Shown: one piece after another, positions 2,714-5,856 of the stretch | Layout: each line of letters opens with the position of its first letter | How positions within the stretch are numbered: the first letter of the stretch is position 1 | From: a virus | Direction: 5' to 3' (one strand) | DNA: 5,856 nucleotides | IMG/VR virus record: IMGVR_UViG_3300007766_000052 | Translations under genes and position numbers: made by a program | Notes under the pieces: generated by a model | What the model saw: only the letters and a program-made list of their open reading frames with translations | What the model was told of the DNA's origin: nothing | Database searches by the model: none

Positions 2714-3025
2714 ATGGAGAGTCTAGTTGACGCCATCTTTTCCGGCTCCCCCGTGAACATGGTCACGCGAGACGCGCTTGCGAAGCAAGCGTCTATCAAA
2801 GCGGGGCCAATACCTGCGCAACATGTTGCGAAAGCAACACAGCAGCCAGTAATAAAAAAGCCGCAGGCCAAAAACAGACCGGTACAAAAACTAACTGAGC
2901 CTGCACCGCAGTCGCTCTCGGCGCGCGAAGAGAAAAAAAAGGTATGTAAATCAAGGCCGGACAGGCTAGCGCCACGCCGTGCAGGCGGTGGCGCAAGTAA
3001 AGACTGGGTGCCATGGTGCAAATAG
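2714..3025 (+). CDS. Very basic 103-aa Lys/Arg/Pro/Gln-rich protein; possible DNA-binding/packaging protein (functional analogue of phiX174 J / gokushovirus VP8)
   Basis: This is the first ATG after the rep stop (16 nt downstream) in an open frame. I count about 20 K+R against 8 D+E. The sequence looks low-complexity. There is no obvious SD, and the same frame stays open upstream back to 2339, so the start is uncertain. Confidence 0.5.
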   Translation: MESLVDAIFSGSPVNMVTRDALAKQASIKAGPIPAQHVAKATQQPVIKKPQAKNRPVQKLTEPAPQSLSAREEKKKVCKSRPDRLAPRRAGGGASKDWVPWCK

Positions 3026-3047
3026 GCGCCCTCTTGTAAAAGGGCGC
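3026..3047 (+). other. Stem-loop immediately after the stop codon of the basic-protein gene
   Basis: gcgccct (3026-3032) pairs with agggcgc (3041-3047), a 7-bp stem with an 8-nt loop (cttgtaaa). No T-tract follows, so it is not a canonical terminator. Confidence 0.5.
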
Positions 3048-3086
3048 AAATCAGTGCAAGGAACTGGAACGAAAGGGGGTGATAAA

Positions 3087-3296
3087 ATGGATAAAATAGA
3101 GGTCATCGGTTCGATTGGGCGTGAGTTGCTCGCGCCTGTCGTTCGACGCGCCGGGCTATATATAGCCGGAGTGCTTGTGACCTATGGGGTGGCCGCAGAC
3201 CATGCGGACACTTTCGTAAATCTGTCCGGGGCGCTTTTGGCGGTCACGTTGCAGATTGGTGCAGTCCTGTATAAGAGGAGAAAGAGAAATGCATGA
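3087..3296 (+). CDS. 69-aa membrane protein with two predicted transmembrane segments and a basic C-terminal tail; holin/pinholin-like candidate
   Basis: A strong SD, AAGGGGGTGA, ends 7 nt before ATG 3087. The hydrophobic stretches are AGLYIAGVLVTYGVAA and FVNLSGALLAVTLQIGAVLY, followed by KRRKRNA. Size and topology resemble class II holins. The stop overlaps the pilot gene start (ATGCATGA). Confidence 0.6.
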   Translation: MDKIEVIGSIGRELLAPVVRRAGLYIAGVLVTYGVAADHADTFVNLSGALLAVTLQIGAVLYKRRKRNA

Positions 3297-4188
3297 TGTC
3301 ATTTTCGACGCTCTTCTAGCCAACGGTGCGCCGGAAATGCATCAAGCATTTCTTGGCGCATTGATTGGCGGGTTGCTCGGACGAAAGCAGGCCAAGAAAA
3401 ACGCGAAGTTGATGGAAGAGGCGGCTAAGGTGCCGGTCGTTTCCACCAACGTCGCGAACTTGGCAGAAATGAATAAAGCGGCGCTGGCGAATGGTTATAA
3501 TCCAATGACCATTTTGCAAGCCGGGGGATTGTCGGCGTTCTCTACGACGACAACCACGGGCCATAATGCAATGGCCGCCGCGCAAGCTCGCGGCGCTGTC
3601 CCCTCGGTGGGGAGCGTCATAGCGGGCGCTATAGGCGGAACGCTCGATAATTTGGCGGGGTCACTCTTTAAGAGTGCGCTGCCAAATTCGAAGAGTTATT
3701 TTCCGCCTGCGCCCTCTGCCGACTTTGGGATGGCAGGGGCGCTAGGATGGACAAGCGGGGGCGGAAAGCCAACCGCGAGTTTTAGCGCCGTTGCTGGCGT
3801 CCCATCCTTCAAATCGGCACGATTGGCTACTAACGCAGGTGCGCCAATGTTGCCGAACTTTGCGCCTGCTGACACGGTTAATCCGTGGGTGCAGTATGGC
3901 GTCGATCCGACGACAGGCGGCGCGGAGCCGTTCGCAAATCGCTATGGCGAGAGTGAACTGGTGGAAATGGTCGCGGGCGTTTATGCCGGATGGGATGATA
4001 TCTGGTATAACGTCACCGGGATGACGAGTCAGGAACGTTATAAGTCGATGGGGCAACCCATCGCGAAAAACGTGACAAACGCATTCGATAGCGTCAAAGC
4101 CGGGGTCCTTACAAGAGACCCGAAGAAAGACACACTGTCCTTCGGAAAGGCGGTCTTTGAATTCTTCGAACCATGGATGGGGCCGTGA
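3289..4188 (+). CDS. Putative DNA pilot / minor capsid protein (phiX174 H / gokushovirus VP2-like), 299 aa
   Basis: AAGAGGAG (3273-3280) lies 8 nt before ATG 3289. The N-terminus has a Gly-rich hydrophobic segment (AFLGALIGGLLG), and the rest is Ala/Gly/Ser/Thr/Pro-rich and low in complexity. It sits directly next to the capsid gene and is about 300 aa. The function is assigned from composition and context, not from a recognised catalytic motif. Confidence 0.6.
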   Translation: MHDVIFDALLANGAPEMHQAFLGALIGGLLGRKQAKKNAKLMEEAAKVPVVSTNVANLAEMNKAALANGYNPMTILQAGGLSAFSTTTTTGHNAMAAAQARGAVPSVGSVIAGAIGGTLDNLAGSLFKSALPNSKSYFPPAPSADFGMAGALGWTSGGGKPTASFSAVAGVPSFKSARLATNAGAPMLPNFAPADTVNPWVQYGVDPTTGGAEPFANRYGESELVEMVAGVYAGWDDIWYNVTGMTSQERYKSMGQPIAKNVTNAFDSVKAGVLTRDPKKDTLSFGKAVFEFFEPWMGP

Positions 4189-4207
4189 AAAAAAGGCCTT
4201 GTAAAAC

Positions 4208-4234
4208 TTGCCGACGCGCTAGACGGGTCGGCAA
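4208..4234 (+). other. Stem-loop in the pilot-capsid intergenic region
   Basis: ttgccgac (4208-4215) pairs with gtcggcaa (4227-4234), an 8-bp stem with an 11-nt loop. No T-tract follows. Confidence 0.5.
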
Positions 4235-4279
4235 AATCGCGATAAAAGAAAGTGTCACCATTTTGAAAGGTTTAAAAAA

Positions 4280-5856
4280 ATGGCTCCGATAAAAACAAGA
4301 CATGCAACAAACCCGATTGCGGTGCCTCGCACCCGCAGAAATCATATGCTCCGCAATATGACGTCGCTGCCTGCCGGCAAGGTCGTACCTGTGGCGACGA
4401 TCCCGCTACTACGTGAGGATAGTATGCGGGGCCGGTTTGCCTTTGCATTCGAGATGCAGCAAACAGTAGAAGTTCTGTTGAACGGCATTGATGTGGTGTG
4501 TGAGGCGTGGCTAGTGCCGAATTTGGCTATGCCCGAATTTCGCACCGCAGACGATCTTGACCTTGCTTATACGGGTCGTAAGCGTGACGGTGAGGCGGCA
4601 CCGACGCCGTATTTCGTGACGCAGCCAGCCGGTGCGCCGGAAACTAATCAGGTGCACCAGCGGCTCGGCAAGCATAGGCGGTCAACGCAAATGGCCAACA
4701 TGTCCTATGTTCGGTCTTATAATGCGTTGGTCAATTTTGCCCGCGCTGAGGTGTCGGCAAACATTCCGCAGCGTGAGCTGCTCGATAAGACGCTCGCGCA
4801 AGCGATGTGGCCGAAAAATATGTTCTCGCATATTGTGCCTGATTTTGATCAGGCGGTGATGCAAGGCGAGGTAGCGTTGAGCGTTGCCCAGCAAAATCTC
4901 GCTATACAAGGCACGCTGAATGGCGGTCGCTATGTTCCGGTTTCCGGCCAGCCTAAATATGTGGCAGGCACGCAAGAGTTCGGCTCTTTCGTGGATAGCT
5001 CGAGGTTGAATAAGTTCGACACAAATGCGCCGGTGGGCAGCCCTATTTCTGACCTGAAAAACCTGAAAGCGGATTTGCAGGGCGCTGTAGCCGTATTGCA
5101 GGATAACGGTATCACGATCTCGCTGGCGAACATTGAGACTGCGAGAAAGGCGCAGATATTCGCGAATATCCGCAAGCGCTATAATGCGCATGAGGAGATG
5201 ATTATCGACCTGTTGATGGATGGTATTCACGTCACAGAGCAGGCGTGGCGGCAGCCAATCCTGCTGCGACGTGGCGATACCCGCTTCGGCATGTCCAAGC
5301 GGTATTCATCTGACGCCGACGCAATGACAACATCGATTGTCGAAGGCGCGGCAGCGATTGAGTTCGATCTAAATGTGCCTCGTGTACCCGGTGGCGGCGT
5401 TGTCATGATCGTCGCTTATTGTGCGCCTGAGCAGTTGTTCGAGCGCATGGAAGACCCCTATCTGGCGGCGCTGTCGCCGGATGATCTTCCGGCGTTTCTG
5501 GAGGATCATCTTGATCCAGAAGCGGTGGAGATCGTGAAGAATGATTACATCGATAATGACCATGATCAGCCGGATGACATTTATGGCTATGGACCGAAGA
5601 ATTTCCGGTGGAATTTCGTGCCTCCCGGCATCGGCGGGCGGTTCCATAGACCGGAGGTCGATGCCGGTTTCGATGAAGATCGTAACGCTATTTGGGCTGT
5701 AGAAACCCAAAATCCGAGGCTTACGAAAGACGCCTATCTCGTACCGGCGGACATTCACCTCAAGCCCTTCTGGACGTCCACAATTGACCCGTTCGATTGC
5801 ATCACGCTCGGCCAGTGCGTGATTGAGGGGAATACGCAGTTCGGACCGGCGTTGAT
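4280..5856 (+). CDS. Major capsid protein (Microviridae F / VP1 family), 5' part; the ORF is still open at the window end and continues at 1..151 (553 aa when joined)
   Basis: I translated this frame by hand from ATG 4280 and found no stop through 5856. The N-terminal pattern TSLPAGKVVPVATIPLLREDSM ... VVCEAWLVPN parallels the conserved G-x-hydrophobic-P ... PGD ... FFVP-x-R blocks of microvirus capsid proteins. It is the largest gene. A weak SD (aaagg) ends 9 nt upstream. It is absent from the ORF track only because it has no in-window stop. Confidence 0.85.
   Translation, partial: MAPIKTRHATNPIAVPRTRRNHMLRNMTSLPAGKVVPVATIPLLREDSMRGRFAFAFEMQQTVEVLLNGIDVVCEAWLVPNLAMPEFRTADDLDLAYTGRKRDGEAAPTPYFVTQPAGAPETNQVHQRLGKHRRSTQMANMSYVRSYNALVNFARAEVSANIPQRELLDKTLAQAMWPKNMFSHIVPDFDQAVMQGEVALSVAQQNLAIQGTLNGGRYVPVSGQPKYVAGTQEFGSFVDSSRLNKFDTNAPVGSPISDLKNLKADLQGAVAVLQDNGITISLANIETARKAQIFANIRKRYNAHEEMIIDLLMDGIHVTEQAWRQPILLRRGDTRFGMSKRYSSDADAMTTSIVEGAAAIEFDLNVPRVPGGGVVMIVAYCAPEQLFERMEDPYLAALSPDDLPAFLEDHLDPEAVEIVKNDYIDNDHDQPDDIYGYGPKNFRWNFVPPGIGGRFHRPEVDAGFDEDRNAIWAVETQNPRLTKDAYLVPADIHLKPFWTSTIDPFDCITLGQCVIEGNTQFGPAL
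5791..5856. repeat. Terminal direct repeat, right copy (identical to 1-66)
   Basis: Same 66-nt string as 1-66. Confidence 0.95.

Follow-up and report, generated by a model that had tools for sequence, protein, structure and literature searches.

A candidate class-II-type holin gene ahead of the DNA pilot gene in a microvirus related to the 'Occultatumvirinae', with relatives in the lysis cassettes of tailed phages

The stretch of DNA considered here, virus record IMGVR_UViG_3300007766_000052 of IMG/VR, is 5,856 nucleotides (nt) long and is referred to throughout as the window. Because its first and last 66 bases are identical, the genome is complete and circular, with 5,790 nt (53.7% G+C), and it is that of a microvirus related to the Rhizobium and Roseobacter 'Occultatumvirinae', the proposed group to which cultured Rhizobium microviruses have been assigned (PMC9753089, PMC11499846, PMC9512667). 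The subject of this analysis is the gene at 3087-3296 (+ strand, stop codon counted), which encodes a membrane protein of 69 amino acids (aa) that is probably the holin of a two-component lysis system. The nearest annotated relatives of the window, Flyfo microvirus Tbat2_108 and the cultured Rhizobium microviruses, have the same gene order and carry a 'hypothetical protein' of 66-69 aa at this place, directly before the gene for the DNA pilot protein.

All genes of the window lie on the + strand. The 69-aa gene follows those for Rep (1663-2697) and a basic protein of 103 aa (2714-3025), and precedes the DNA pilot (VP2/H-like) gene at 3289-4188, which is recognised from the gene order kept in relatives and from its homologue in phage CRPss-154, annotated as a DNA pilot protein. 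The gene for the major capsid protein starts at 4280 and wraps round the circle to 151, and is followed by an open reading frame (ORF) of 185 aa (orf185, 308-865), a signal-less M15 (LAS-type) peptidase that is the presumed endolysin partner of the 69-aa protein (849-1367) and an ORF of 62 aa (orf62, 1364-1552). The pilot gene has its ATG at 3289, giving the 8-nt overlap with the 69-aa gene, ATGCATGA at 3289-3296, that a preliminary description of this DNA had pointed out. Overlaps are common in the window, with others between orf185 and the peptidase gene (849-865) and between the peptidase gene and orf62 (1364-1367).

The 69-aa ORF begins with an ATG at 3087 and ends with a TGA at 3294-3296, its product being MDKIEVIGSIGRELLAPVVRRAGLYIAGVLVTYGVAADHADTFVNLSGALLAVTLQIGAVLYKRRKRNA. 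A near-consensus Shine-Dalgarno site, AAGGGGGTGAT, can be read on the + strand at 3073-3083, its G-run stopping 7 nt upstream of the ATG, and the GAAAGGGGGTGAT element is also present upstream of the homologous gene in two relatives (L001 and L019). The JGI gene calls include an identical 69-aa protein, and the ratio of nonsynonymous to synonymous substitution rates (dN/dS) against close relatives, 0.04-0.15, shows this to be a protein-coding gene under purifying selection. The leader as a whole (3040-3086) holds a conserved GCAAATCAG element together with its very strong Shine-Dalgarno site. In the relative RHph_N2_10 (L002, 4695-4770) a stable hairpin (z = -4.8) encloses that site and may exert translational control; no significant structure equivalent to it is present in the window or in other relatives. 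Between the basic-protein gene and the 69-aa gene lies a short GC hairpin without a T-run (3026-3047, + strand), which was rejected as an element, having a folding z of -1.5 and no conserved equivalent structure in relatives.

Two parts of the protein are hydrophobic, aa 22-35 and aa 43-62, and AlphaFold2, given an alignment of 133 sequences, models it as a two-helix hairpin (residues 3-32 and 37-68) with a mean predicted local distance difference test score (pLDDT) of 90.9. From the alignments and the first modelled helix, aa 1-21 (3087-3149) form an N-terminal amphipathic helix, predicted to be cytoplasmic, that ends in a conserved P17-x-x-R-R. The first membrane helix, AGLYIAGVLVTYGV (aa 22-35, 3150-3191), is weakly hydrophobic and Gly/Ala-rich with conserved G23, A27, L30 and G34; a short acidic turn, AADHADT (aa 36-42, 3192-3212), is predicted to be periplasmic; and the second membrane helix (aa 43-62, 3213-3272) is more hydrophobic, with a conserved G48 and a polar position in its middle that is a conserved Asp in the family consensus, D or E in most relatives and Q56 in the window. 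The basic C-terminal tail KRRKRNA (aa 63-69, 3273-3293) is predicted to be cytoplasmic, and a basic tail is kept across the family. This pattern of charges, in which RR precedes helix 1, KRRKR follows helix 2 and the turn between them is acidic, fits an N-in/C-in topology, the N-terminus being placed in the cytoplasm by the positive-inside rule. The 69-aa length, the two hydrophobic helices and the KRRKRNA tail, all noted in the preliminary description, are thus borne out by sequence, hydropathy and model, and class II holins are likewise proteins of about 60-100 aa in which two hydrophobic helices are followed by a highly charged, basic tail. Among the + strand ORFs of the window no other has a hydrophobic stretch of transmembrane grade. 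Searched with Foldseek against BFVD, the model matched one homologue from a microvirus; everything else was helical hairpins without significance.

The gene belongs to a large family. Searched against 1.84 billion proteins, a profile of 14 microvirus proteins matches 152 representative clusters (E<=1e-3), nearly all of them 58-110 aa long and matched over their full length, with a consensus made up of a PLxRRxGT motif, a short first helix LVAxGV, the acidic turn, the second helix and the basic tail. NCBIfam gives no meaningful match for any family member, and identity between the 69-aa protein and its Rhizobium-microvirus homologues is 28-36%. Wherever a member was traced, its source was a contig of microvirus size, a concatemer or an integrated microvirus prophage, and its gene always came directly before the pilot gene. 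The small gene stands immediately 5' of the pilot gene throughout the clade, overlapping it by 1-14 nt in some relatives and separated from it by tens to a few hundred nt in others, and this position is kept in 47 survey genomes (the window included) and four further genomes; conservation and synteny in related microviruses, which the preliminary description had proposed to check, are therefore both found. That the ORF arose by chance or is an annotation artefact, for which its small size only could be cited, is ruled out by the conservation data, namely the low dN/dS given above, the strong Shine-Dalgarno site, the 152 homologous clusters and the position kept in 47 and four genomes. The integrated prophage (L095, 7001-12781) lies within a 608-kb bacterial contig and has the order of the window (small gene, pilot, capsid, two ORFs, the second of which matches the peptidase hidden Markov model (HMM), and Rep); its small protein is 94 aa long, with a C-terminal extension.

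Such a fixed place next to the pilot gene, with overlap in some relatives and the same order in the integrated prophage, is what would be seen if the 69-aa protein were a partner of the pilot protein, that is, a membrane or virion factor aiding its insertion during DNA delivery or assembly, and the preliminary description had held an anchoring role of this kind to be equally valid. Gene overlaps, however, are general in this compact genome, as the two around the peptidase gene illustrate, and the wider distribution of the family also speaks against the idea.

A profile made from microvirus sequences only (A2, and A1 before it) reaches a protein of a tailed phage, P0018, at E = 6.8e-5 in a search of 5.8e9 sequences. 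P0018 is 61 aa long and is encoded on a 32.5-kb tailed-phage contig, and its addition to the query brought in further relatives of 61-67 aa. When the microvirus and tailed-phage profiles were aligned with hhalign the probability was 95.8% and E = 7.9e-9 over 52 columns. The 69-aa protein itself is 46% identical to P0018, and the score of this alignment was set against shuffled sequences: z is 9.4 when the composition of each hydrophobic segment is preserved (none of 3000 shuffles reaching the score) and 15 for full shuffles. Taken together, these alphaproteobacterial tailed-phage and prophage proteins (P0018-P0025, with genes such as L018 7004-7207 and, in a Pseudogemmobacter humi prophage, L094 1967-2152) are 42-48% identical to the 69-aa protein, including an RYIAGVLVAYGV / LYIAGVLVTYGV block, and share with it the helix-turn-helix layout and the basic tail. 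They carry no annotation; a tblastn search of GenBank phages with P0018 and P0025 gave no match, and a genome scan with a narrower alignment (A7) found a single prophage. Matches of the 69-aa protein itself by tblastn to the Rhizobium siphoviruses P11VFA and L338C (E about 2) were dismissed as chance, since they fall on the strand opposite to the annotated gene. The identity to P0018 exceeds the 28-36% to Rhizobium-microvirus homologues, a hint from sequence comparison that microviruses and tailed phages exchanged the gene recently.

In every tailed-phage locus recovered, the homologue follows the endolysin gene with a 4-nt overlap, and the position directly after the endolysin gene is the usual one for a holin. 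In L004 the upstream enzyme is a GH19 protein (5315-6004), and after the homologue comes an Rz-like i-spanin gene (phrog_1026, E = 4.5e-8) in which an o-spanin-like ORF with a lipobox is embedded. In L018 a GH19-like gene (6396-7007) precedes it, and i-spanin-like and lipobox ORFs, recognised by eye, come after. An Amidase_2 enzyme (E = 5.9e-15; 874-1416 in L006) stands upstream in L006-L010, where a 72-aa ORF that is i-spanin-like by eye follows. In the P. humi prophage (L094) the upstream enzyme (1335-1970) is Amidase_2-like by eye only, and a 121-aa ORF follows, then ORFs that by eye are i-spanin-like and lipobox-bearing. In L102, finally, a Phage_lysozyme (GH24) gene (1346-1987) precedes the homologue, and an incomplete ORF of 98 aa with a hydrophobic start and a coiled-coil-like region comes after it. 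Three of these loci (L004, L018 and L094) thus have the homologue just ahead of spanin-like genes. None of the paired GH19, Amidase_2 and GH24 endolysins has an N-terminal signal or a signal-anchor-release (SAR) segment. A holin would be expected to show just this pattern, a single small membrane protein paired with three unrelated catalytic classes and, at three loci, placed shortly before spanin-like genes. The same loci bear on the pilot protein, since tailed phages are not known to have one; clear homologues in the lysis cassettes of phages without a pilot protein make the pilot-anchoring role unlikely, and the claim that it is equally valid is not supported.

It was also observed that the endolysins upstream of family members (including a further one at L103 1-312) all have a similar tail at the C-terminus, hydrophobic or amphipathic, of which PWAALITAILSIFRKVKA, GWLARIVEIISNLLWRSK and ALGRFFAALFSIFARKK are examples, and that several have a Pro-rich linker before it. 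This shared tail, which the microvirus peptidase lacks, may be a membrane-targeting module.

Described holin families add a weaker signal. The 69-aa protein has a weak match to phrog_6116 'holin' (E = 0.003), and one Pfam family, PF23987 Phage_holin_10, the family of the Pam3 gp28 holin, is matched by 44 of 133 family members at E<=0.1, mostly weakly, with a best E of 5.7e-7; the tailed-phage relatives score 12-22.7 bits against it. Apart from PF23987, no Pfam family is matched by more than five of the 133 members, and no other Pfam holin family matches the 69-aa protein at E<=1. Like PF23987, the family is small and two-helix, and its members match nearly the whole of the 52-position profile in register, whereas the microvirus members have about 12 additional N-terminal residues and the PLxRRxGT motif. 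As judged from profile similarity, the family is a distant relative of Phage_holin_10 and not a member by Pfam's rule, the scores of the members searched singly falling below the gathering threshold. No experimental paper on Pam3 gp28 was found in the searchable literature.

The enzyme that such a holin would release is encoded at 849-1367. The window peptidase matches phrog_465 endolysin (E = 5.9e-13) and has its zinc-site motifs intact, and the peptidase profile of the clade matches endolysins of solved structure that are L-Ala-D-Glu endopeptidases (8q2g, LysB4, Ply500 and that of T5), as well as the solved structure of ChiX. These matches, and the activity of a hydrolase of the related microvirus Ebor considered below, make it a credible endolysin. 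It has no hydrophobic N-terminus, the maximum 17-residue Kyte-Doolittle average being 0.8, so that its description as signal-less was correct, and no hydrophobic, signal or SAR segment is found in the 66 peptidases of the clade (maximum 1.34). Since this muralytic enzyme is cytoplasmic and signal-less, a way across the inner membrane is needed, and the 69-aa protein is the sole holin candidate in the genome.

The two genes also occur together. For a survey, 80 IMG/VR contigs were gathered via the capsid protein (32-94% identity) and scanned with an HMM for each gene. Among the survey genomes that cover both positions, 47 have both genes, three the peptidase only (L023, L053 and L086) and two neither (L025 and L054); with cultured phages, the prophage and the concatemer included (n=57), the counts are 51 with both, three with the peptidase only, none with the small gene only and three with neither. 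The cultured phages CRPss-151 and RHph_TM24 carry both genes and CRPss-154 neither, the last having been reported to lack the peptidase (PMC11499846). L012 was rejected as a 'small gene only' genome, the peptidase region falling across the ends of its linear contig. The peptidases of L023 (5049-5597) and L086 (1358-1879; both in core coordinates) have lost the zinc-site H...D and DPAH motifs, and both motifs are intact in every scorable, that is non-truncated, genome carrying the small gene. Absences of the small gene fall at no fewer than five separate places on a neighbour-joining tree of capsid proteins. A pilot homologue is kept in five of these genomes (L023, L025, L053, L054 and L086), and a pilot gene is annotated in CRPss-154, so that six pilot-bearing genomes are without the small gene, which tracks the peptidase and not the pilot as a partner of the latter would.

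Short membrane-type ORFs are seen in several genomes that have no family member: one of 34 aa with a transmembrane segment in CRPss-154 (L099 1657-1761), one of 60 aa with a C-terminal transmembrane domain (TMD) in L023 (4257-4439) and one of 47 aa with a lipobox in L086 (662-805). These, and an ORF of L053 described below, may be replacement lysis genes.

The preliminary description had called the 69-aa protein pinholin-like. A pinholin would form small depolarising channels, with a SAR-like first helix leaving the membrane, and the peptidase would have to cross by another route. In its favour, the protein resembles S21 68 of phage 21, the prototype of class II holins, in its length (68-69 aa), its two hydrophobic helices, weak and Gly/Ala-rich in the case of the first, and its basic C-terminus. 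On a crude Hessa-scale sum the family's first helix is about as weak in hydrophobicity as the SAR helix of S21 68 (+3.5 to +6.3 against +4.9 to +6.4 kcal/mol), and it has the conserved small residues G23, A27 and G34. A pinholin, however, works with a SAR endolysin, and none is found in the window, among the 66 clade peptidases or among the GH19, Amidase_2 and GH24 partners. Unlike S21 68, moreover, the window protein has no dual-start motif, and there is no sequence similarity between the two (local score 23 against a shuffle mean of 22-26, z about 0), just as no Pfam holin family besides PF23987 was matched. The pinholin assignment is therefore improbable.

A further claim, that the peptidase and the membrane protein belong to different transcription units, was not upheld. 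A terminator-like hairpin is indeed present between orf62 and rep, within the proposed 1565-1600: at about 1571-1599 on the + strand, GCCCCTAGA...TCTAGGGGC is followed by T6, and the region 1553-1620 folds at -33.7 kcal/mol (z = -5.4), although a consensus terminator scan did not flag it. On the circle, however, the path from the small gene through the pilot, capsid and orf185 genes to the peptidase gene crosses no comparable terminator, so that one long transcript that starts past 1599, goes round the circle to end at about 1599 and carries both genes is at least as plausible.

We therefore regard the 69-aa protein as probably a class-II-type holin that, in a two-component lysis system, releases the cytoplasmic M15 peptidase. 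It would be made together with the structural genes and would insert into the inner membrane as an N-in/C-in helical hairpin, a topology suggested by its charges, with the RR motif and the KRRKR tail remaining cytoplasmic and the acidic turn directed towards the periplasm. It would then accumulate and, at a presumed moment of triggering, form holes, putatively wide enough to pass a folded L-Ala-D-Glu-type peptidase of about 19 kDa, which could reach and cut the peptidoglycan so that virions are released. The holin-endolysin strategy put forward in the preliminary description is to this extent supported in part, by the homologues in tailed-phage lysis cassettes, the matches to a Pfam holin family and the co-occurrence with the peptidase.

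Several points weigh against this assignment. The evidence for every family member, microviral or tailed-phage, is computational. Helix 1 of the 69-aa protein is short (13-16 residues), and its hydrophobicity by a crude Hessa-scale sum is marginal, so that a topology with two TMDs is not secure. Against PF23987 the protein scores 12.4 bits (E = 0.17), where the gathering threshold is 27, and ten other microvirus members searched singly reach at most 17.3 bits, four of them having no match. The label 'holin' for the tailed-phage relatives comes from gene position and weak profile similarity. In those dsDNA (double-stranded DNA) genomes the gene lies directly 3' of the endolysin gene, whereas in the window it is coupled to the pilot gene and lies 1.72 kb after the end of the peptidase gene with rep between, in agreement with the roughly 1.7 kb first reported; adjacency to the endolysin gene within a lysis cassette is not universal for holins. 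Fisher's exact test on the co-occurrence gives p = 7e-4, or 1.4e-6 when intact peptidases only are counted, both values ignoring phylogeny. L053 is an exception, having a peptidase and, in the slot of the small gene, an unrelated ORF of 45 aa with a single TMD (702-839). An outer-membrane-disrupting component (spanin) was not found in the window. Other small membrane ORFs, finally, lie near the tailed-phage homologues, of 65, 114 and 135 aa in L004 and of 83-85 aa in L006 and L094.

Because these further small membrane ORFs lie near the homologues, and one of them might be the true holin, the family could instead consist of antiholins or other accessory lysis proteins. The 69-aa protein would then be a timing regulator, or have another membrane function such as superinfection exclusion, and would not itself form holes, a possibility to which the matches of microvirus members to holin families, all under curated thresholds, also lend some weight. 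The microvirus, however, has no other membrane-protein candidate on the + strand for it to regulate, and loss of the small gene together with peptidase activity fits an essential partner better than a modulator; we therefore consider an accessory role unlikely and the hole-forming holin the better description.

Small phages are usually described as single-gene lysers, their coding room being short. In 2012 an endolysin role was proposed for the M15 peptidases of microviruses (PMC3394797), and a recent survey mentions only 'unidentified lysis genes' (PMC11499846). In the searchable literature we found no proposal of a holin in Microviridae, and no paper that names the component by which the signal-less microvirus enzyme would cross the inner membrane; the 69-aa gene, with its family of 152 clusters, is a specific candidate for this missing component. 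As a class-II-type holin with a relative among the Pfam holin families it would be of a known kind; new are the holin candidate in ssDNA (single-stranded DNA) phages and the connection of the family's microviral branch to its tailed-phage branch. That a whole lineage of ssDNA microviruses, the 'Occultatumvirinae' and their neighbours, lyses its hosts by a two-component holin-endolysin system and not by a single gene, with a mostly microviral holin family that tailed phages of Alphaproteobacteria also possess, is in our judgement a proposition with an even chance of being right. If it is, lysis modules move between ssDNA and dsDNA phages, a further case of gene sharing between these groups, and a widespread unannotated family in tailed-phage lysis cassettes would gain a functional label. 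As the gene is present in cultured Rhizobium and Roseobacter phages, the question is open to direct genetics.

Some other features of the window may be recorded. The frame of the basic protein (2714-3025) overlaps the 3' end of rep upstream, and its C-terminus, RRAGGGASKxxVPWCK, is strongly conserved, being common to the window, Tbat2_108 and RHph_X92; it is probably a DNA-binding, charge-neutralising virion protein like Ebor Gp10, phiX174 J or VP8. The product of orf62 (1364-1552), whose gene overlaps the peptidase stop by 4 nt, is soluble and helical, and the Rhizobium phages have a similar ORF in this place (RQRLVVKGAINQLQLAL compared with RTRVLVANAIGNLKLSL); since orf62 adjoins the 3' end of the peptidase gene, it could have a part in lysis. 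The intergenic regions after the capsid gene (150-295, z = -3.2) and after the pilot gene (4180-4285, z = -2.9, both against shuffled controls) hold GC-rich hairpins without T-runs, which could be RNA-stabilising elements, partial terminators or elements of an ssDNA origin.

How the proposed system would compare with known ones can be seen first within the Microviridae. The E protein of phiX174, one of the 'amurins', has a single N-terminal TMD, is encoded out of frame inside gene D, and inhibits MraY with no endolysin needed (PMC3394797). The window shares with it the use of a small membrane protein proposed for lysis, but here the gene stands free between those for the basic protein and the pilot, its product has two helices, and it co-occurs with a peptidoglycan peptidase of the M15 type encoded by the same genome. 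Another parallel is offered by Ebor, an alphaproteobacterial microvirus of the 'Tainavirinae', whose peptidoglycan hydrolase Gp7 has been shown to be active (PMC11980548). Ebor also encodes a predicted membrane protein, Gp1, for which its authors proposed no role and no holin; the gene follows that for the basic Gp10-like protein and lies upstream of the pilot gene, with gp2 between, and Gp1 was undetected in virions by mass spectrometry (PMC11980548), which, by analogy only, speaks against a pilot partner at this position. Gp1, compared by description only, has 45 aa as against 69; a published primer for Ebor gp7 had no exact match among viral contigs.

Outside the microviruses, separation of the two genes is familiar from tailed phages, where holin and endolysin genes are unlinked in T4 (t and e) and in T7 (17.5 and 3.5). 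The pairing of a holin-like protein with an M15 L-Ala-D-Glu endopeptidase is known from ChiW and ChiX of Serratia. The holins of these systems have no sequence relationship to the 69-aa protein and offer a functional precedent only, in T4 and T7 for a holin encoded far from its endolysin and in Serratia for a holin-like partner of an M15 enzyme.

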